From the IMG/VR virus record IMGVR_UViG_2778261510_000005: a DNA stretch of 64,000 nt; one strand, given 5' to 3'. The notes below the pieces were generated by a model. The model ran no database searches. It was not told where the DNA came from and saw only the letters and a program-made list of their open reading frames with translations. The position numbers and the translations under genes are program-made. Position 1 is the stretch's first letter. Every line of letters begins with the position of its first letter. The DNA comes from a virus (taxonomy: Duplodnaviria; Heunggongvirae; Uroviricota; Caudoviricetes). Positions 1,116 to 64,000 of this stretch are shown here, piece by piece.

Positions 1116-1191
1116 TGGTGCCGGTTAACGGACTCGAACCGCTGACATCCTGCTTACAAGGCAGGCGCTCTGCCAACTGAGCTAAACCGGC
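1116..1191 (-). tRNA. tRNA-Thr (anticodon UGU), CCA encoded
   Basis: minus strand GCCGGTT-TA-GCTC..GAGC-G-CCTGC-CTTGTAA-GCAGG-ATGTC-AGCGG-TTCGAGT-CCGTT-AACCGGC-A-CCA; hand-folded cloverleaf, 76 nt. Confidence 0.85.
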
Positions 1192-1193
1192 AT

Positions 1194-1269
1194 TGGCGAT
1201 GGTGGATGGATTTGAACCATCGACCTGTTGATTAACAGTCAACCGCTCTAACCGCTGAGCTACACCATC
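1194..1269 (-). tRNA. tRNA-Asn (anticodon GUU), CCA encoded
   Basis: minus strand GATGGTG-TA-GCTC..GAGC-G-GTTGA-CTGTTAA-TCAAC-AGGTC-GATGG-TTCAAAT-CCATC-CACCATC-G-CCA; 76 nt, 2 nt from tRNA-Thr. Confidence 0.85.
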
Positions 1270-5459: not shown

Positions 5460-5476
5460 ATATTTATTAGAGCAAT
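5460..5476. promoter_or_regulatory. C1-repressor-type operator upstream of the uhr-hrdC-dmt operon
   Basis: ATATTTATTAGAGCAAT, 16/17 match to operator consensus. Confidence 0.6.
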
Positions 5477-47881: not shown

Positions 47882-47898
47882 AAATTAATTAGAGCAAT
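47882..47898. promoter_or_regulatory. C1-repressor-type operator between divergent ssb and lyz
   Basis: AAATTAATTAGAGCAAT, 16/17 to consensus. Confidence 0.6.
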
Positions 47899-53013: not shown

Positions 53014-56000
53014 ATGAAAAAGCTATCTATGGGGGTGTTTCGCTGTTCAAGTGTCAGCGAAATATTGAAATACATTAGGGCAATAACATCTCATCGAGCG
53101 CCGATTAGATACGGCGTGGAAAAGGTGGAAGGCAAAAGCTATGACCGACTACGCCGGGAGGCGAATCAGAAGGCGATAGATTTGCTTAATTCGCTGGTGG
53201 ACGGCGCGACACTGACAGATGAACAGCGCCAGATCCTGGCTGGGTACACCGGCGAAGGCGGCATTGGCGGGTCCGTCTCCGAATATTACACACCAAAGCC
53301 GATCGCTGAAGGTGTCTGGGAGATCATGAAGCTCTACGGCGCGGACGTAGGTAACACTCTGGAACCATCGGCGGGCACCGGCGTTTTTAATGAGACAAAA
53401 CCGGTTGGTACGGTGATGACCGCGACTGAGATCAGCAGTGTTTCCGGTCGTATAAACCAGCTGTTACACCCGGAAGACAGCGTACAGATTTCCCCGTTCG
53501 AACAGCTGGCTGTAAGCACGCCTAACGATTCATTCGACCATGTTGTGGGTAACGTTCCGTTCGGTGGTCGTGATAACACACGCAACATCGATAAGCCTTA
53601 CGCAGAAGAAACGGACATGGGGTCTTACTTCATGCTCCGCATGCTGGACAAGATAAAGCCAGGCGGATTCATGTGTGTGATTGTGCCGCCGTCCATTGTT
53701 TCAGGTTCAAACATGAAGCGGTTGCGCCTGCGCCTATCCCGTAAAGCTGAATTTCTTGGCGCTCACCGCTTGCCTACCGGTACTTTTGACGCAAACGGGA
53801 CCAGTACGGTCGTAGATGTGGTGCTGATGCGCAAACATCCGGCAGAGATGGCTGAGAAAATCCCCCTGGTGGATGAGAGCACTCTTGAATTGGCAAATGT
53901 GCTTTGGCCAACGTTTATTTCTGGCAAGTGGTTTGAAAAGGACGGCCGCCGGTTTGTTCATGGCACCCAGGAAAAGGGCTTCCAGGGGCGTATTGAGGTT
54001 CGTGCCGACGGTCAGATTGATAACCAGGCTCTTAAAGCGAAGCTGATTCATCGTTTCGAAAGCCGTATCGACTGGTCTTTGCTCGATATGGCTGAACCGT
54101 CACCGACCGCAGACGTTGTTGGTGAAGGGGAAATGCGCCTGATTAATGGCGTATGGCAAAAATATGCTGGTGGTCGCTGGATTGAAGCTGATGCCGGGAA
54201 GGAACTTAAGATCGATGCTGCCAGTTATGGCGCGGATAGCTGGGAGGCTCTTCAGCGTAACCTGACTACAACAGAAGGCCGTCTCGGCATGACATTTACC
54301 CAGATGGCAAATGTCCGCGATAAGTACACCACATCAATCAGCGACGATATGGTGCAGCTGGTGGACTGGATTAACAGCCAGCCTGAAAAATACCGTGAAC
54401 GCTTGTATCGCGGGGCGATGATTGGCCGGATGTTAATTGAATATCAGGACATGAAGGCCGCCGGGCATAGTGCTGAACAAATCGAACAGCAGCGCCTTTC
54501 TCTGGTATCCCGTTTGCAGGCAGAGATTGACCGTTTTGGTAACCCCGGTCGCGGTCCGATAGCGAAATTATCGGGGAGCGGTGCGCGCGCCTGGTTTGCT
54601 TTCCGTGGTGCAATTAAGCTGGATGGCACTATTTCTGACGAGCTGACAGGAAAACTGGTTACGCATGATTCCAGCGCCAGTTATGACTCCACCAGCTATC
54701 AGGACACCCTGCGTTATCTCTACAGTGATCTCACTCGCGATCCAATCCAGCTCGATGATTTCCGCCTTGCGTTTACCGGCGAACTGCCAGCCAGTGATGA
54801 CGAGTTGCTTAATTTATTGGCCAGCACCCCTGGCATTGCGGTTTCACCGTATGGCGGGATTGTTCCGTTCGCCCGCGCCACCAGCGGCGACATTAACGAG
54901 ATAGTGGCTCCAAAACAGGAATTCCTTGCCACACTCCCCGACGGTCCAGTAAAGAACAACGTCCTTAATCAGCTGGCAGCGATCGAAGAGAAGCGCATCA
55001 AGACGCCAGCAGAGAATATCCGCTTTAAGCTCAATAGCCGTTGGTTCGACCGCTCCGTCATTCTGGAGTTTTTGCAGGAAAACGGCTATCCGGATCTGCG
55101 CTATGTGCAGTCAGTGCAGCTGGAAGGCGACGAAATGGTTTCTGACACCTATCACGGTGGTGATGGTCTGTTCGTCGGGCACCGATACGGTGTCGTCCAG
55201 CGCAAGGATAAAGAAACAGGCGAGATCCGCTACGAGTGGGACCGTAAATCAGGTGAAAACGCGACCGGGTTCCCGGCACAGCTGGAAAAGTATCTCAATG
55301 GTGCGCGTATCGGTGGCAAAGATAGCGCGACGGCGAACGGCTACCGCGAGCAGATGGCACTGCTTGAGGACCAGTTCAATAAGTGGATCAAGACGCACGA
55401 TCGCTACGATGAGCTGGTTGCCAAATACAACGATGTGTTCAATAGCAATATCCCGTATGAACACTCTGGCGATCCGCTTGGGTTGAAGGGATTAAGCGGT
55501 AAGCGCCAGCCATTTGATTACCAGAATAGCGAGGTGCGCCGACTGTCCGAAGATGGGCGCGGCATCCTGGGCTTCGGCACCGGGCTGGGTAAAACCACGA
55601 CCGCGCTGGCGCTTGAGGCGTTCAACTATGAGAACGGTCGCTCCACCCGTACTGCGTATGTAGTGCCTAAATCAGTGCTGGAAAACTGGTATTACGAAGC
55701 AAAAGAATTCCTGAGTGAAGAGGCATTCAGTAACTACCTGTTCGTCGGTCTTGATGTGCTGATGGATGGCGATCAGATTCGCCAGGTGCCGGTGCTCGAT
55801 GAGAACGGTAAACCTGTCCTTGGTGCTGATGGCACTCCACTTATGCGCGATGCCCTTAAGCTGGCAGATGAAGCCACTATCACGGCGCGGATGAACGCGA
55901 TACCGCACTCAAATTACCGTGCAGTCGTGTTTACCAAAGAGCAATACGCCCGCATTCCGCTACGTGATGACACCGTAGATGAGCATGCACAGGATATGCT

Positions 56001-59000
56001 TTATGACTTCGTTGCCGCCGGGCGCGTAGCCAGCGCAATGGACTCCGACTCCCACCGCAAAGAGGCAGCGCGTCGCCGGGTATTGTCGGAGTATTCAGAT
56101 ACCGGTACCGAAAAAGCAGAGAAGTATCCGTACTTTGAGGATATGGGCTTCGACAGCGTGATCGCCGACGAAGGCCACAACTACCGCAATAGCTATAAAA
56201 ATGGTCGCGAAGCGTCACAACTGGCCTATCTGCCCACCAGCGCGGTGGCGCAATCGGCGCGGGATATGGCAATTAAAAACGCGTACCTGATGAAAAAGAA
56301 TGGCGGGCGCGGGCCGGTTCTTCTGACTGCAACGCCAGTCGTTAACACCCCGATCGATGCATACAACATGCTTTCTCATGTTCTGCCGAAGGAATACTGG
56401 CAGAAGATGGGGATCTACGGTCCTGATGACTTCGTTAAATTCTTCGGCAAGACCAGGCTGGAAACGGTACAGAAAATTAGCGGTGAAGTTGAAGAAAAAA
56501 TGGCGCTGGTGGGCTTTGAAAACCTTGATGCGCTGCGCGGTATATTCCATCGCTGGGTAACGCTTAAAACGGCGGAAGACGTTAAGGATACCGTGGAGAT
56601 CCCGGAGCTGGACGAACACCAGCAGGATGCACCACTTACTGAAGAACAACTGGCGGCGTATGAAGAATTGCGTCAGCAGGCGGAAGCGGCGGCCAAAGCC
56701 AACAATGGCGTAACGACCTCGGTCGATGAAGACGGAGTGATTGAGCACGAGAAAGCCCGTCCGATCTTCTCAATAATCAGGGATATGGACCGCGTATGTA
56801 CTGACATGGACCTGTACTATCGCCGGATCACCTATCGTTTCCTGCCGGAGTACGCCGATGCGGTGCAGCAGCTGGCGGACAGTTTGCCCAAACAAGCCAC
56901 CAGCGAAGACGACGACAGTGATGATTCAATCACGCAGCAATCGCAATACTCCCTGATAGATAAGGGCGAGTTTATTCAGTTGCAGGTTCCGGAAGCGTTC
57001 GAGCAGGAAGTGAATAAGCGCTTGGCCAAGTTTGGCATTGACGAACAGACCGTAACTCACCCCGTTACGCCCAAATACGCGAAGCTGATCGCCACGCTGA
57101 AGGAGTTTTTCCCGGAAGGTAAGCAAATCATCTTCACGGACGAAAAAACGCAGCACCAGAAGCTCAAGCGCATTATCTGCAATGCTCTTAACCTTGAACC
57201 TTCAAAGGTGGGGATCCTGAATGCTCAGACGGTTGCCGAGGCAGGTAAAACCGGTAAGAAACTGAAAGCGGTTAAACCGCCGAAAGAGCTACCGGATGAA
57301 CCAACAGATGCACAGATAGCGAAATACAACGAGCAAATGGCTCTGTATGACGCCTATATCGCGCAGCAAAATGAAATGTCGCTGGGCGGGCTGGAAAAGA
57401 TTGCTGCCGACTTCCAGGAGGGCCGGACTCCGATCATCATCTGCAACAAAAAGGCAGAGGTGGGTATCAACCTGCATCGAGGAACGACTGACATCCATCA
57501 TCTGACGTTGCCATGGACACCAGCCAGTATCGCACAGCGTAACGGTCGCGGTGCCCGAGTTGGTTCCAACCGTGCAAGCGTTCGCGTTCACTACTACTGC
57601 GGCAAGGGTTCTTTCGATGAATACCGACTGAAGACGCTGAAGCGTAAAGCAGGCTGGATCTCCGATATCCTCCGCTCAGATAAGTCTGAAATGGAGAACG
57701 CCGACGCCAACGATATGATCGAAATGCAGATGTATACCGCTAAGGATGATGGCGAACGTCTGGCAATGATGCAGGTTCAAATGGATAAGGCGAAAGCCGC
57801 GCAACGCGCTCGCCAGAAAGAACAGGCTACTATCGACCTTCAGAACTACATCAAGGCGCAGCACGCAGCTGGCGAGGATGTGGAGGTACTTACCGCTGAA
57901 TTAGAGCGAAGCAAAGCGGAACTTGAAAAGACCACCGCCGAGGTAGCTAAATTCAAACAGGCGGTAATGGCCAAAGCAGCTGATAACGCAGACTGGAAGG
58001 CCCGCTGGGGTAGCGTCCATCACACAGACCGTACGTTGTTAGCACAGTATCGCGCGTCGTTGAAAAGCGCCATTCAGCGCAAGGCTAATATCTCTCAGGC
58101 CATCTCCCGCTATGAGAAATTATTGAACCGTACTCAGAAGGCCGCGACGGATATCAAACGCCTGCGCCCGCTGGTGGAGGATGCAATAAATAAAGGCATT
58201 CTGGATGTTGATCCTGATCTGGTTAACCATGCGAATGAGTTCCTTGTTATCGGCGATCGCTCATGGCGTGTAGGCCAATACTACGATTGTGCCGGTGATA
58301 TCGTTCGCATTAAGTCGCTGGACTTCGACAGCCAGCGCGCAGACGTGGAGATCATCTTTACCTTCAAAGGCACCAAATCGGGTAACTGGGATGTGAAGAC
58401 GCTGGATAAACAGGTTGATGTAACTCCCGATGAAGATGCTGTTATGCAGAAAATCAGTGGTGGCGTCTCCATCGCCGGGATTAACGACATCATTTCCTGT
58501 GACGATTTCTACCGTTTCCAGCAGCGCGGCATGATCAAAATCACTGACTCATACGGCGTTCAGACTACAGAGTCAGGCTATAGCATTGATTTTGTTGGTA
58601 CCTATACGGACCCACTGAAGCATGCGGTTTACCCGGATCGCCGTGACGGCGCGCTGAAGTCGTCAATTGCAAAATGGGTGCTTGGTATGATGTCTGAAGG
58701 GAATAACCGCCAGGTCCGTTTGGCAGAAGCATTCCTGGTTGAACTGTTTGGTTCCAATTATGGCGATGTAATCGCGTCATACGGAGATACGCTATCCCCT
58801 GAAGCAATTCAGGAGAACATAGCGGATGCGATCGCAAAAATGCCGGAGAAAACAAGCCAGGGGGCTACTCGTAACGGGGATTCTGAACTTGAGGTCACCA
58901 ATGCCATTTTCGGTACCAATGAGTTCCGGGCGTCAGATTATGAGATCACCACAACACAGTTTGGCCCCATTGGCATTTACAGCAATAAAGACGAGATCAA

Positions 59001-59781
59001 GCAGGCAATGGACGCAGCAAGCGCGCGCATTGCAGCAGAACGGAAAGCCAATCTGAATCATGCAGTCGCCGCGCTGACTCAATCGTGGGTAACAGCAATC
59101 AGGGAGGCCGCCGCCACAGGGAAAATCACACCGGCAATTGCGGATGTCGTAAACGACGGCTCTAAATTTATGGATGCCTATCAAATGGATGCGGTGCAGT
59201 TGCCATCAGCCTATGGCCAACTCAGCTATCGCATGACCTACAACCTGGTATCAATGTTTTCCGACCTTGCCATCCTTGGGCTGGTGGACCTTAACGAGGT
59301 TACGCCGGAATTGCTCAGCATGCGCAAGAACCATGTGGAGATATTGCACAGAATTAACACGGTACTTTCCGGGCGCACCGATGAAGAGAAACAGGCAGAC
59401 GCTGATCGGATAAACCTGGCCCTTGGCAACATCACGGAGGAAGAAATTGCCGCCAGAAACGAGAAACAAGAAGAGTTATCATCAATACAGGGTGATGCCA
59501 CCAGCATAGCTCAGTCTCTTGGTCTGAATTATCGCGTATCCACCGCCGACCTGAAGATGATGTACGCACCGAAATTCGCCGCTGGCGAGGTATTTGGGCT
59601 TCAGGAAGCCTCAGGCATGAAAGGCGTTCTTTTCCGTGCGAAAGACGCAATCAAGGCGAAATTCGGCGCTCGCTGGCTGCCAGCGAAGGCGAAGAACAGC
59701 GATTTCCCGGGTAACTGGTGGATTATCGAGACAAAACACAACGTGGCGGACGTTCTGGCCGTCATCCAACAATACGCATAA
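53014..59781 (+). CDS. darB: giant antirestriction protein with N-terminal N6-adenine methyltransferase-like and central SF2 helicase-like domains
   Basis: 2255 aa; MTase motifs EPSAGTGVF and VGNVPFGG; helicase motifs GFGTGLGKTTTA and VIADEGHNY; size identical to P1 DarB. Confidence 0.8.
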   Translation: MKKLSMGVFRCSSVSEILKYIRAITSHRAPIRYGVEKVEGKSYDRLRREANQKAIDLLNSLVDGATLTDEQRQILAGYTGEGGIGGSVSEYYTPKPIAEGVWEIMKLYGADVGNTLEPSAGTGVFNETKPVGTVMTATEISSVSGRINQLLHPEDSVQISPFEQLAVSTPNDSFDHVVGNVPFGGRDNTRNIDKPYAEETDMGSYFMLRMLDKIKPGGFMCVIVPPSIVSGSNMKRLRLRLSRKAEFLGAHRLPTGTFDANGTSTVVDVVLMRKHPAEMAEKIPLVDESTLELANVLWPTFISGKWFEKDGRRFVHGTQEKGFQGRIEVRADGQIDNQALKAKLIHRFESRIDWSLLDMAEPSPTADVVGEGEMRLINGVWQKYAGGRWIEADAGKELKIDAASYGADSWEALQRNLTTTEGRLGMTFTQMANVRDKYTTSISDDMVQLVDWINSQPEKYRERLYRGAMIGRMLIEYQDMKAAGHSAEQIEQQRLSLVSRLQAEIDRFGNPGRGPIAKLSGSGARAWFAFRGAIKLDGTISDELTGKLVTHDSSASYDSTSYQDTLRYLYSDLTRDPIQLDDFRLAFTGELPASDDELLNLLASTPGIAVSPYGGIVPFARATSGDINEIVAPKQEFLATLPDGPVKNNVLNQLAAIEEKRIKTPAENIRFKLNSRWFDRSVILEFLQENGYPDLRYVQSVQLEGDEMVSDTYHGGDGLFVGHRYGVVQRKDKETGEIRYEWDRKSGENATGFPAQLEKYLNGARIGGKDSATANGYREQMALLEDQFNKWIKTHDRYDELVAKYNDVFNSNIPYEHSGDPLGLKGLSGKRQPFDYQNSEVRRLSEDGRGILGFGTGLGKTTTALALEAFNYENGRSTRTAYVVPKSVLENWYYEAKEFLSEEAFSNYLFVGLDVLMDGDQIRQVPVLDENGKPVLGADGTPLMRDALKLADEATITARMNAIPHSNYRAVVFTKEQYARIPLRDDTVDEHAQDMLYDFVAAGRVASAMDSDSHRKEAARRRVLSEYSDTGTEKAEKYPYFEDMGFDSVIADEGHNYRNSYKNGREASQLAYLPTSAVAQSARDMAIKNAYLMKKNGGRGPVLLTATPVVNTPIDAYNMLSHVLPKEYWQKMGIYGPDDFVKFFGKTRLETVQKISGEVEEKMALVGFENLDALRGIFHRWVTLKTAEDVKDTVEIPELDEHQQDAPLTEEQLAAYEELRQQAEAAAKANNGVTTSVDEDGVIEHEKARPIFSIIRDMDRVCTDMDLYYRRITYRFLPEYADAVQQLADSLPKQATSEDDDSDDSITQQSQYSLIDKGEFIQLQVPEAFEQEVNKRLAKFGIDEQTVTHPVTPKYAKLIATLKEFFPEGKQIIFTDEKTQHQKLKRIICNALNLEPSKVGILNAQTVAEAGKTGKKLKAVKPPKELPDEPTDAQIAKYNEQMALYDAYIAQQNEMSLGGLEKIAADFQEGRTPIIICNKKAEVGINLHRGTTDIHHLTLPWTPASIAQRNGRGARVGSNRASVRVHYYCGKGSFDEYRLKTLKRKAGWISDILRSDKSEMENADANDMIEMQMYTAKDDGERLAMMQVQMDKAKAAQRARQKEQATIDLQNYIKAQHAAGEDVEVLTAELERSKAELEKTTAEVAKFKQAVMAKAADNADWKARWGSVHHTDRTLLAQYRASLKSAIQRKANISQAISRYEKLLNRTQKAATDIKRLRPLVEDAINKGILDVDPDLVNHANEFLVIGDRSWRVGQYYDCAGDIVRIKSLDFDSQRADVEIIFTFKGTKSGNWDVKTLDKQVDVTPDEDAVMQKISGGVSIAGINDIISCDDFYRFQQRGMIKITDSYGVQTTESGYSIDFVGTYTDPLKHAVYPDRRDGALKSSIAKWVLGMMSEGNNRQVRLAEAFLVELFGSNYGDVIASYGDTLSPEAIQENIADAIAKMPEKTSQGATRNGDSELEVTNAIFGTNEFRASDYEITTTQFGPIGIYSNKDEIKQAMDAASARIAAERKANLNHAVAALTQSWVTAIREAAATGKITPAIADVVNDGSKFMDAYQMDAVQLPSAYGQLSYRMTYNLVSMFSDLAILGLVDLNEVTPELLSMRKNHVEILHRINTVLSGRTDEEKQADADRINLALGNITEEEIAARNEKQEELSSIQGDATSIAQSLGLNYRVSTADLKMMYAPKFAAGEVFGLQEASGMKGVLFRAKDAIKAKFGARWLPAKAKNSDFPGNWWIIETKHNVADVLAVIQQYA

Positions 59782-60541: not shown

Positions 60542-61846
60542 CTATATAAACTTAGATATAATATCGTGAATCTGTTGTAGCGGGATATCTTCCATCTCAT
60601 TCTTAATAAGAGAGCGGTTAGATGCTGTCAGTGAAGGCCATTTTGTTTTCCAGGCTAGATATGCTCGCCATGAGCAGCCTGTTTCGTAAGGTTTATTCAT
60701 ATTAGTCATTGAGTGCTCAACCGCATGTATGTATTTTTTCTCAAAATTGGTTCCTTTTACTTCAAATAAACTACCGAAATAAATAAGCCATTTTGCCAAG
60801 TGTTCATACTGCTCCCATGCGCCAGGCTTTTTAGTAAGTTCTATTTTTTTATCTATTATATTACAAAAAACATTTAATACATTTTCATTATTCCAGCTAT
60901 ATCCAGATGATGAAATGGAGGAAATGATATGATAAAAAGAATCCTCTAGCTTCAAGAACTCTATTTTATACTCTCTTCCGTTTTTTATTACCGATTTGAT
61001 TGAGTGCCTCAATTTGTCTTTTATTTTTTTTGCTTCTGGAATTTTATCGTTAAGTTTTCTAAAGAAATCAGATACCTCTGTTTTATCTATAACCCTAACC
61101 CCATAGCAGGAAAAATAGTAATCTTTAATAGGTTGCAATAGTTCCCCTCGGGAAACAAGGAAAATATTGGAGGACATTACGTTGTCCCGTGAAAATACCT
61201 TATATTCATTTATAATAGCCTTTAGGTTCGCGTCACTTAGAGAATAGCCAAGGATAACAATAGTGTTTTCATGTAGAACTGTGCTTAGTTTATTAGAAAA
61301 GTAAGAATTACCATTTATAAATCTGAAATAATCCTCGCTAGTAACAACCATGTCTGATGGGGAGTCTATAGAACCGTGAACATGGTAGACTTTAACCTCA
61401 CAATTATATTTTGGAATTGGCAGGCCGGGGGTGATTGTACACGTTCGATTCTCTCCAGCCAGCTTTTCTGCTAACTTGTCATAATTTGTCGTAATTACTT
61501 TAAATGTGTTTTCTTTGAAAAAGTCTTGAATATATTCAATTGATGGATCAAGTTCGATTGAGGCTATGATTTTCTCAATCTCCTGGTAAATATTTTTCCC
61601 CGAAAGTATAAATTTTAGTGCAATAACCTGAGCAGCCTCTTCAAGGCTAAGGTCTTTTGCTTTTCCATCAGGAAATAATTCCTCTTTGAGTGAGTCACCA
61701 TCCTTCAACAAACCGCACAGTTGCTCCAATAAAGATTGCCAACTTGGGGCTTTATCATCAGAAACAGCCTTTGAAAATCCAGTGCCTGTAAGAAAGCACA
61801 GCCTATGTGTAGCTGCTGCATAGGCAATTTCTATATACTCGCTCAT
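60542..61846 (-). CDS. SIR2-family (ThsA-like SIR2_2) protein with uncharacterised alpha-helical C-terminal domain
   Basis: 434 aa; motif blocks FLTGTGFSKAVSDDKAPSWQSLL, KVITTNYDKL, VYHVHGSIDSP...EDY, IVILGYSLSDANL align to ThsA SIR2 blocks; ATG 61846 with GGAG RBS; coding sequence AT-rich. Confidence 0.8.
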   Translation of the reverse strand: MSEYIEIAYAAATHRLCFLTGTGFSKAVSDDKAPSWQSLLEQLCGLLKDGDSLKEELFPDGKAKDLSLEEAAQVIALKFILSGKNIYQEIEKIIASIELDPSIEYIQDFFKENTFKVITTNYDKLAEKLAGENRTCTITPGLPIPKYNCEVKVYHVHGSIDSPSDMVVTSEDYFRFINGNSYFSNKLSTVLHENTIVILGYSLSDANLKAIINEYKVFSRDNVMSSNIFLVSRGELLQPIKDYYFSCYGVRVIDKTEVSDFFRKLNDKIPEAKKIKDKLRHSIKSVIKNGREYKIEFLKLEDSFYHIISSISSSGYSWNNENVLNVFCNIIDKKIELTKKPGAWEQYEHLAKWLIYFGSLFEVKGTNFEKKYIHAVEHSMTNMNKPYETGCSWRAYLAWKTKWPSLTASNRSLIKNEMEDIPLQQIHDIISKFI

Positions 61847-62804: not shown

Positions 62805-62837
62805 ATTGCTCTAATAAATTTGATTTATTAGAGCAAA
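62805..62837. promoter_or_regulatory. head-to-head pair of C1-repressor-type operators
   Basis: ATTGCTCTAATAAATTT (62805-62821, 17/17) overlapping by 1 nt an inverted copy TGATTTATTAGAGCAAA (62821-62837). Confidence 0.6.
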
Positions 62838-62914
62838 TAAACTACTATTGGACGCCAGACTATTGATCTTCCTGTTGTTCAGGCTTATAGTTCCTACGTC
62901 GTAGCAAATTCTGC

Positions 62915-63125
62915 GACCGGGTTTAGCAGCCTGAATGTACATGCGGACAACCGCAGATTTCCGATATTGCGGTATTTTTATGTCCGTAAAACCGCGTTAC
63001 GCCCGAATTATGGTGGGGCGTGATGGGGAGGCTTCGGCCTGCTGGTTTCATGTACGCCAGTCTGCTAACCCCGTCACGTCCTGCCACCCGTTTAGCAGCG
63101 GGTAGCAGGTTGTTAAACCTGTACA
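62915..63125 (+). ncRNA. second c4-like antisense RNA region with switched recognition motifs (boundaries approximate)
   Basis: collinear with 21960-22160 (minus); every GACAG in copy 1 replaced by AGCAG, every GATTGTG by GTACATG, on both partner strands. Confidence 0.45.
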
Positions 63126-63138
63126 TGAGGCCGTAACT

Positions 63139-63360
63139 ATGGTTAATGCCAATCCTTGCGCACGCCCTGAATTTATCTGGCGCTTTTACTCCTGCCAGAA
63201 ACGTCACTATCACTTCGTTATCGCACCAACAGAAGATGAGGCACGTTCTCAGCTTCCGGATGCTCCCTGTATTTTCTCTGCCCGCTTTTCTACCGATTCG
63301 CGCAATTCTCTCAGTTACTGGTGCCTCCCTGTTAACGCTTCGGCTCAGGAGGGACTATGA
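63139..63360 (+). CDS. Icd paralog, 73 aa
   Basis: MVNANPCARPEFIWRFYSC..., about 80 percent identical to the copy at 21719..21940. Confidence 0.6.
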   Translation: MVNANPCARPEFIWRFYSCQKRHYHFVIAPTEDEARSQLPDAPCIFSARFSTDSRNSLSYWCLPVNASAQEGL

Positions 63361-64000
63361 GAACGTCATTAGTCACCCGTGAAGAGATGATCGAGGCAAT
63401 TGAACAGCACACTGCCTGTATCAGTACCAGGGATATACCAGGCGTTATTGCCAACTACTTCATGATCACCAAACAACTTTACCGGAGAAAGGACAAACAC
63501 GCGGTTCACCGTATCCTGTTGTCTGATATCCGCGAATACCTGCTCGAACAGGGGCATCTGAATTACGCAACCGTCGCAGCCGAAGCACGCAAGGAGGCAC
63601 ACAGAATGAAAGCAACTAACGTTAAATCAGAAAAAATTCATGCACCTTCAGTTCAGGAATCGGAGCTGGTGGTTGTTCAAAATCAGCCGGATGAAATTCC
63701 CGTTCTGGAATGGCAGGGAGTACGTGTCGTAACAACCGAAACTCTTGCTAAGGGGTACGGAACCGATGAAGGCAATATTCGTAAAAATTTGTCTTGCAAC
63801 TCCGATCGCTTTGAAGAAGGTAAACACTACTTTCTTTTAACTGGTTCAAAATTAAGAGAATTTAAGAACAGAGTTACTTTTAGTAACTCTGTTGGTAAGA
63901 ACGCCAGAAACCTCACTCTCTGGACGGAACGCGGCGCAGCCCGCCACGCTAAAATGATCGAAACCGATCAGGCATGGGCATTCTTTGAAAAACTGGAAGA
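63357..64000 (+). CDS. second antirepressor, 5' 214 codons; gene runs off the window end
   Basis: ATGA overlap with icd paralog, AGGAGG RBS; N-terminal 90 aa paralogous to Ant at 20685, then a different C-terminal domain. Confidence 0.65.
   Translation, partial: MRTSLVTREEMIEAIEQHTACISTRDIPGVIANYFMITKQLYRRKDKHAVHRILLSDIREYLLEQGHLNYATVAAEARKEAHRMKATNVKSEKIHAPSVQESELVVVQNQPDEIPVLEWQGVRVVTTETLAKGYGTDEGNIRKNLSCNSDRFEEGKHYFLLTGSKLREFKNRVTFSNSVGKNARNLTLWTERGAARHAKMIETDQAWAFFEKLE

Follow-up and report, generated by a model that had tools for sequence, protein, structure and literature searches.

Two c4-icd-ant immunity modules with different antisense recognition motifs in the genome of a P1-like phage

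Results

Two immI-type modules in one genome

The DNA analysed here, a stretch of 64,000 nucleotides from a tailed phage (IMG/VR record IMGVR_UViG_2778261510_000005; hereafter the window), comes from a P1-like (Punavirus) phage-plasmid, in which the immI switch is probably present in two copies that are both functional and do not cross-react. Copy 1 bears the recognition motifs a = GACAG and b = GATTGTG, copy 2 the motifs a = AGCAG and b = GTACATG, each at three sites. We refer to such a combination of a and b as a key.

Module 1 (~22272-20685, minus strand) is, judged by its sequence, the canonical immI of a P1-like phage, 99.7% identical to that of phage JL22 and 96.9% to that of P7. All of its parts lie on the minus strand. 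A putative C1 operator (22256-22272, 15 of 17 positions, in accord with the P7 annotation) is followed by the c4-a1b1 leader (22142-22195; Rfam RF03163, 47.1 bits against a gathering score of 46.7) with a1 (GACAG, 22150-22154) and b1 (GATTGTG, 22136-22142). The C4 antisense RNA (21991-22067) gives a full-length Rfam match (model positions 1-87) at 22073-21988 with 68.4 bits and contains b' (CACAATC, 22024-22030) and a' (CTGTC, 22013-22017). Then come a2 (GACAG, 21981-21985), b2 (GATTGTG, 21952-21958), icd (21940-21719) and ant1/ant2 (21722-20685), with kilA (20521-19721) downstream. Upstream of module 1 (22554-23075, plus strand) lies the gene for a upf50.5 lipoprotein of the P7 type, whose TraT match is weak and below threshold; simABC occupies this position in P1.

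A complete second c4-icd-ant module, composed of operator, promoter, a1/b1 leader, C4, a2/b2, icd and ant, occupies 62805-64000 on the plus strand. It follows darB (53014-59781), ulx, bof/lxc, a SIR2-like gene and mat, is oriented away from mat, and takes the slot which ref has in P1, between mat and c8/cre. The operator predicted for the C1 repressor (62805-62821, plus strand) matches ATTGCTCTAATAAATTT in 17 of 17 positions, and an inverted imperfect copy (62821-62837, 14 of 17) renders the site palindromic. C1-operator matches number seven in the window against 0.03 expected by chance, further ones being located at 1927-1954 (an overlapping inverted pair), 5460-5476, 20591-20607 and 47882-47898. 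A sigma-70 promoter-like site, TTGATC-17-TATAGT (62863-62891, plus strand), was recognized by a scan and by alignment with P1; according to this alignment and the P1 annotation, its position is homologous to that of the P1 promoter P1c4 (former P51b).

The remaining elements of module 2, all on the plus strand, repeat the order of those in module 1. The c4-a1b1 leader (62885-62937; RF03163, 53.2 bits against a gathering score of 46.7) comes with a1 (AGCAG, 62925-62929) and b1 (GTACATG, 62937-62943). The C4 antisense RNA is placed at 63012-63088, where its 77-nt mature form is predicted by homology to the annotated P1 c4, within a full-length match (1-87) to Rfam C4 (RF01695) at 63006-63091 that reaches 71.7 bits against a gathering score of 45. 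The motif b' (CATGTAC, 63049-63055) lies in the hairpin loop of the folded RNA and a' (CTGCT, 63062-63066) in its single-stranded junction; the minimum free energy of the 77-mer is -44.9 kcal/mol (z = -4.9), with the same fold as in copy 1. The target region on the icd-ant mRNA (63092-63130), which forms 15 pairs with C4, contains a2 (AGCAG, 63094-63098, within TTAGCAG at 63092-63098) and b2 (GTACATG, 63121-63127; 63121-63128 as GTACATGA), and b2 overlaps the GAGG Shine-Dalgarno sequence at 63127-63130. The predicted promoter and operator and all six motifs of module 2 are intact, and the module possesses what characterizes the P1/P7 immI operon, namely predicted C1 control together with a putative constitutive promoter. 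Within the 64-kb window, the Rfam search gave no C4 matches beyond these two modules.

The icd paralog of module 2 (63139-63360, 73 aa) encodes a protein with 82% amino acid identity to Icd of module 1, and its stop codon overlaps the start codon of the ant paralog, ant', in an ATGA at 63357-63360. The window end cuts ant' (63357-64000) at codon 214; a conserved internal Ant2-like start, the ATG at 63606, has an AGGAGG Shine-Dalgarno sequence in front. In pTA13-2, a relative with 99.6% identity, the full-length Ant' has 370 aa. The N-terminal 84 aa of Ant' are homologous to Ant1 (~60% identity); residues about 90-215 are not, and a Pfam ORF6N match replaces the middle region of Ant1. The C-terminus, beyond the window end and read from full-length relatives, is a KilAC domain more than 90% identical to that of Ant1. 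Going by these relatives, ant' is presumably intact in this genome too. Ant' would be expected to inactivate C1; given its different middle domain, the target might also be another than C1.

Two further features of the window may be recorded. A gene for a 434-aa SIR2_2-domain protein (60542-61846, minus strand; Pfam 83 bits), probably an anti-phage defence gene, lies between bof/lxc and mat. This slot is variable: P1 has its res-mod restriction system there, in pE2865-1 the same SIR2_2 gene adjoins res-mod, and in pTA13-2 a GNAT gene is found instead. Two adjacent tRNA genes (1119-1269, minus strand; Rfam 72-77 bits) are present, as in the P1 tRNA cluster.

Differences between the copies fall in the recognition motifs

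Next, we compared the regulatory blocks of both modules in an ungapped alignment of 245 nt (62897-63141 of copy 2 against 22182-21938 of copy 1). The blocks upstream of the two icd genes are indeed collinear and largely identical, as the initial annotation had it: they differ in 23 of the 245 nt. The 36 motif positions account for eighteen of these 23 differences (hypergeometric P = 2.5e-13), while outside the motifs the blocks are 97.6% identical (2.4% differ). The three proposed replacements of GACAG/CTGTC by AGCAG/CTGCT are all borne out, with the motifs lying inside the ranges assigned to them; the three replacements of GATTGTG/CACAATC by GTACATG/CATGTAC are real as well, with coordinates that had to be shifted by 1-2 nt. 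AGCAG/CTGCT strings at 63104 and 63039 are common to both copies and do not represent switches. The identification as a second c4-icd-ant module likewise holds, given the Rfam matches to C4 and c4-a1b1, the Icd identity and the KilAC-type Ant paralog.

Complementarity to the C4 loops survives every motif switch between the copies. Between the two C4 RNAs, six loop nucleotides differ, four in b' and two in a'. When both regions were aligned and folded, the same structure was obtained, with the differences concentrated in the motifs. The minimum free energy structures of P1, P7, copy-1 and copy-2 C4 are identical (-42 to -44.9 kcal/mol, z-scores from -4.6 to -4.9), b' being exposed in a hairpin loop and a' in a single-stranded junction.

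The adjacent icd paralogs have gone through a very different history, with dS of 1.39, dN of 0.11 and dN/dS of 0.08; synonymous sites are near saturation (63% differ). On account of this dN/dS value, we rejected a pseudogene. Since the c4 block is near-identical next to a gene almost saturated at synonymous sites, it must be under far stronger constraint or have been homogenised more recently. Its low divergence would be explained by very strong constraint, or by gene conversion that stayed within the block.

Both modules are reassortments of circulating alleles

Alignment with the annotated phages gives the alleles a = GACAG and b = GTTAGTG for P1 and a = AGCAG and b = GATTGTG for P7. Copy 1 of the window thus combines the a allele of P1 with the b allele of P7, and copy 2 combines the a allele of P7 with a third b allele, GTACATG, found in neither P1 nor P7. 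This third allele also occurs in the second module of phage Ro157c2YLVW. The family as a whole contains two a alleles and at least five b alleles (GATTGTG, GTTAGTG, GTACATG, ACGAATG, ACTTGTG) in nine combinations. Since both window modules are reassortments of alleles circulating in the family, the new specificity was not born in this genome. The earlier proposal that RNA and targets have evolved together to a new specificity therefore stands as to the compensatory nature of the changes and has to be revised as to their place, which was not this genome.

For four of the b alleles, all eight combinations with the two a alleles exist in spite of the interleaved order of the sites (a1 b1 ... b' a' a2 ... 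b2). To obtain a new a/b combination by recombination, three crossovers within ~200 nt would be needed, or mismatched intermediates.

Covariation throughout the family

IMG/VR was scanned with the invariant C4 core, which yielded 113 loci. We typed 108 complete modules, including the window's two, corresponding to 40 distinct sequences. The a1/b1 alleles agree with the a2/b2 alleles in 108 out of 108 complete modules. Intermolecular pairing was counted on an alignment of 41 sequences, composed of distinct modules from IMG/VR and the window. The 15 pairs of a'-a2 and b'-b2 are 100% Watson-Crick in the 41 sequences, and so are the 14 pairs of a1-a' and b1-b'. In each of the two pairing sets, seven pairs have changed on both sides, with no one-sided change and no mismatch, so that the initial claim of changes on both pairing partners holds for the family at large. 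As a control, the partner was slid by 1-3 columns, which reduced pairing to 25-49%. The covariation signal is about as clean as an RNA-RNA interaction can yield, and it extends to the sites a1/b1, so far called putative.

The sole discordant module that we saw lies near the end of IMG/VR contig 2565956613_000015. Here, a1/b1 and C4 belong to the ACGAATG type, whereas b2 reads GTTAGTG. Natural recombination between a2 and b2 may have produced this module, or the contig end may have been misassembled into a chimera.

Predicted independence of the two C4 RNAs

To compare the two RNAs, loop-target duplex energies were summed, a measure that is crude for contacts as short as these. The predicted sum is about -26.5 kcal/mol for cognate combinations. 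For copy 1 x copy 2 it amounts to -12.9 and -15.8 kcal/mol in the two directions, and for P1 x P7 to -16.2 and -17.8 kcal/mol. In both cross directions between the window's copies, six of the 15 pairing positions are mismatched. According to Citron & Schuster (1990, as cited in PMC5320573), four differing nucleotides between P1 and P7 C4 are enough to prevent cross-reaction. As the cross energies in the window are weaker than those of P1 x P7, where four nucleotides reportedly suffice, the window pair should be at least as independent. Our best inference from these models is that the two C4 circuits are orthogonal, each RNA controlling its own antirepressor only.

In many relatives the co-resident modules have the a allele in common and differ at b alone. 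The predicted loss of energy for differences at a only is small, ~2-3.5 kcal/mol. Partial cross-talk is possible in those relatives whose co-resident modules differ at one site only, as far as the modelled energies go.

Stacking and mobility of cassettes in related plasmids

The P1-type C4 core is present in PLSDB in 563 plasmids, at 663 places, and 54 plasmids there cover at least 80% of the module-2 query. Key counts rest on 34-nt queries and direct reading of the sequences. By this procedure the exact copy-2 key was found in 31 PLSDB plasmids, once in each, the copy-1 key in 60, and the exact pair of keys present in the window in four. A count of places matched by a 40-nt b-specific query was dropped: partial matches to other alleles were counted as well, which made it not type-specific. 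NZ_AP027182, for example, has two places matched by the 40-nt b query and one GTACATG module only.

A complete circular plasmid, pTA13-2, aligns collinearly with the window at 96-98%, and we rejected an assembly artefact on this ground. pTA13-2 contains three C4 genes, all with different keys. The third one is part of an isrK-C4-icd-ant module whose motifs are unrelated and which lies between pacB and c1 (L119, 2827-4422; a = TTGGAAC, b = GCAAAAGG). In pacB-c1 modules of this kind, a C1 operator and an isrK-like RNA come together with icd, a 370-aa Ant and a C4 of divergent sequence (76-77 bits); the counterpart in the window's source genome would sit a few kb beyond position 64000.

Related complete plasmids bear two to four c4 modules each. 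In pE2865-1 there are four C4 genes, all with different keys: AGCAG/GATTGTG in immI, AGCAG/GTACATG between mat and c8, GACAG/GTACATG downstream of ban (L127, 19648-21153), and the isrK type with divergent C4 between pacB and c1 (L127, 46322-47896). An IMG/VR contig with four P1-type modules was set aside as a possible chimera, since two of its loci are linked to kilA, and the complete pE2865-1 was used instead. In NZ_CP013030 an extra cassette lies downstream of ban (dnaB), behind the same palindromic C1 operator as module 2 of the window, and shares its a allele with the immI of that plasmid. The presence of the operator-c4-icd-ant cassette at different loci shows that it is mobile among at least three of them.

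In relatives, co-resident modules may be distinguished by a alone, by b alone or by both sites. Among the genomes examined, none had two independent modules with the same key. The single apparent same-key duplicate, in NZ_CP016549, turned out to be a segmental duplication of ~21 kb, reaching from ddrA through immI with identical protein accessions; its second immI lies inside this duplication and hence is not an independent module. NZ_CP016549.1 is a 126-kb record labelled complete, in which the ~21-kb repeat spans ddrA, tail genes and immI; the duplication may be an untrimmed terminal redundancy or the product of a concatemer assembly. Extra cassettes nearly all have b = GTACATG, and immI rarely does. 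Lineage alone could therefore explain most of the non-identity of keys within genomes. To take this non-identity as proof of selection would be too strong, as ancestry may account for part of it.

Discussion

How the two switches may work

C1 represses the upstream promoter of immI in P1 and P7. The P1 leader is cut by RNase P to release C4 (PMC5499578; PMC5320573), whose pairing with a2/b2 blocks translation of icd and hence expression of ant (PMC8198154). We propose that in the window, too, each module would be transcribed from a C1-operated promoter and a constitutive one, and that each leader transcript would be processed to a 77-nt C4 RNA (by RNase P in P1). The hairpin loop with b' and the junction with a' would then bind b2 and a2, which directly precede icd, covering the icd ribosome-binding site and blocking icd translation, and the antirepressor gene, being translationally coupled to icd, would be silenced along with it. 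Because the alleles of each module are present at all of its sites, a1/a'/a2 and b1/b'/b2, each C4 should silence its own ant only.

Each cassette may accordingly be pictured as a shield (c4) joined to a sword (ant). A lysogen would be immune only to those relatives whose ant modules all match a resident C4. If immunity requires that every ant be matched, an extra module with a different key would broaden immunity, and stacking of distinct keys would pay. The extra key would also let the phage break the immunity of residents that do not have it. We infer RNA processing, repression in trans and this set-inclusion logic for the modules of the window.

Weighing of other explanations

The observations could also be read in ways that do not make module 2 a second, independent P1 immunity determinant. 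The one we would rank highest among these, while still considering it unlikely, is that module 2 keeps its antisense control and Ant' has been retargeted from C1 to a different repressor, perhaps one belonging to another resident prophage, or has taken on another role; with such an Ant', module 2 would not be a second P1 immunity determinant. The ORF6N region at residues about 90-215, not homologous to Ant1, fits this idea, as do some modules of this type in contexts not assignable to P1 loci. Against it speak the homology of Ant' to Ant1 both in the N-terminal 84 aa and in the KilAC C-terminus (>90%), the perfect predicted C1 operator in front of module 2, and the distribution of this module type, which is largely confined to P1-like plasmids. 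A slightly less likely option still is that module 2 is functional and not orthogonal, the C4 RNAs cross-repressing each other's target so that the copies are redundant and serve gene dosage or backup of ant repression. The almost identical RNA backbones could be taken that way, since the pairing flanks (TT...CAG and G...TG) are common to both copies and co-resident modules in relatives often have one of the two sites in common. The six mismatches among 15 pairing positions in both cross directions are hard to reconcile with redundancy, and so are cross energies (-12.9 and -15.8) weaker than those of P1 x P7, a pair reported as non-cross-reacting in the source cited above; moreover, the strict covariation at three sites implies that the exact bases of the motifs matter.

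That module 2 lacks a function of its own, having been left behind as an inert piece when P1-like plasmids recombined or having been created in assembly from two co-resident plasmids, strikes us as very improbable. P1-like elements do exchange DNA freely by recombination, a four-module IMG/VR contig contains two immI loci linked to kilA and is possibly chimeric, and one plasmid record holds a 21-kb duplication including immI. Module 2 itself, however, has intact reading frames under purifying selection (icd dN/dS 0.08), an intact promoter, operator and set of six motifs, and a Rfam C4 score above that of copy 1, and the same arrangement recurs in dozens of complete circular plasmids. Two functional immI switches with separate specificities therefore remain the explanation we prefer.

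A wider, and clearly more tentative, proposal concerns the whole group: P1-like phage-plasmids may possess a combinatorial RNA bar-code immunity, in which two a alleles and five or more b alleles, each occupying three places in a module, are combined on movable operator-c4-icd-ant cassettes stacked up to four per genome. The cassettes would reside at immI, between mat and c8, downstream of ban and between pacB and c1. Both a and b would have to match for repression (AND logic), immunity would follow set inclusion, and diversity of the keys would be kept by frequency-dependent selection. The window's genome would then be a two-key, possibly three-key, player in an arms race. At present we would lean somewhat against this proposal.

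Significance

The immI region of P1 and P7, the founding example of antisense-RNA immunity, has so far been treated as one module with two specificities. Here, two keys are found in one genome, within a family that displays at least nine key combinations on stacking cassettes. Such a family provides, ready-made by nature, RNA-target pairs that are presumably orthogonal and share a scaffold with hardly any variation; they might serve as synthetic regulators. It further suggests a concrete rule, open to test, for the lysogens that a given P1-like phage-plasmid can superinfect or induce. Resistance genes are found on many of these plasmids in E. coli, E. albertii and Salmonella. Finally, it offers a clean system in which to ask how an RNA and three copies of its target switch specificity without passing through a lethal derepressed intermediate.

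Extra modules have been mentioned in passing. D6-like pYU39_89 contains an additional region homologous to c4/icd (PMC6799933), and RD-1 of pSvP1 an additional region homologous to icd-ant1/2 (PMC6906374); motifs, specificity and orthogonality were not analysed in either report. In the literature searched, where coverage of the key immI papers was incomplete, we found only such passing mentions and no treatment of allele combinatorics or stacking. Stacking and combinatorial alleles thus appear to be little described, while the mechanism and its compensatory logic are textbook P1/P7 biology.

Comparison with known systems

The closest relative of the window's modules is immI of P1 and P7. Common to all of them are the C1 operator, two promoters, the a1/b1 leader, a C4 of 77 nt (predicted for the window), the a2/b2 sites over the icd Shine-Dalgarno sequence, the ATGA coupling of icd and ant, the internal Ant2 start and the RNA fold. 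Specificity would depend here, as it does there, on 2+2 to 2+4 nucleotides, altered jointly in the RNA and at its target sites, and such joint changes are the textbook basis of heteroimmunity between P1 and P7. Unlike P1 and P7, the window has two modules in one genome. Module 2 differs further by its palindromic C1 operator, the b allele GTACATG and the ORF6N-bearing Ant, and copy 1 is itself a hybrid of P1 (a) and P7 (b).

The isrK-C4-icd-ant modules, which form the third or fourth module at pacB-c1 in pTA13-2, pE2865-1 and RCS47, resemble the window's modules in their C1 operator, their C4 (76-77 bits), an icd-like ORF and a 370-aa Ant with ORF6N and KilAC domains like that of module 2; they use another pair of recognition motifs. 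In contrast to the modules of the window, they are devoid of the a1/b1 leader, have an isrK-like RNA upstream, and their C4 is far more divergent.

A more distant parallel is provided by the plasmid copy-control antisense RNAs ColE1 RNA I and R1 CopA and by the processed CI immunity RNA of P4, where a few loop nucleotides changed together with the target give rise to new incompatibility or immunity groups. We know of no homology between these RNAs and C4; the RNA families, the targets and the downstream mechanisms are different. The P4 CI RNA and C4 are nevertheless alike in that both are substrates of RNase P (PMC5499578).
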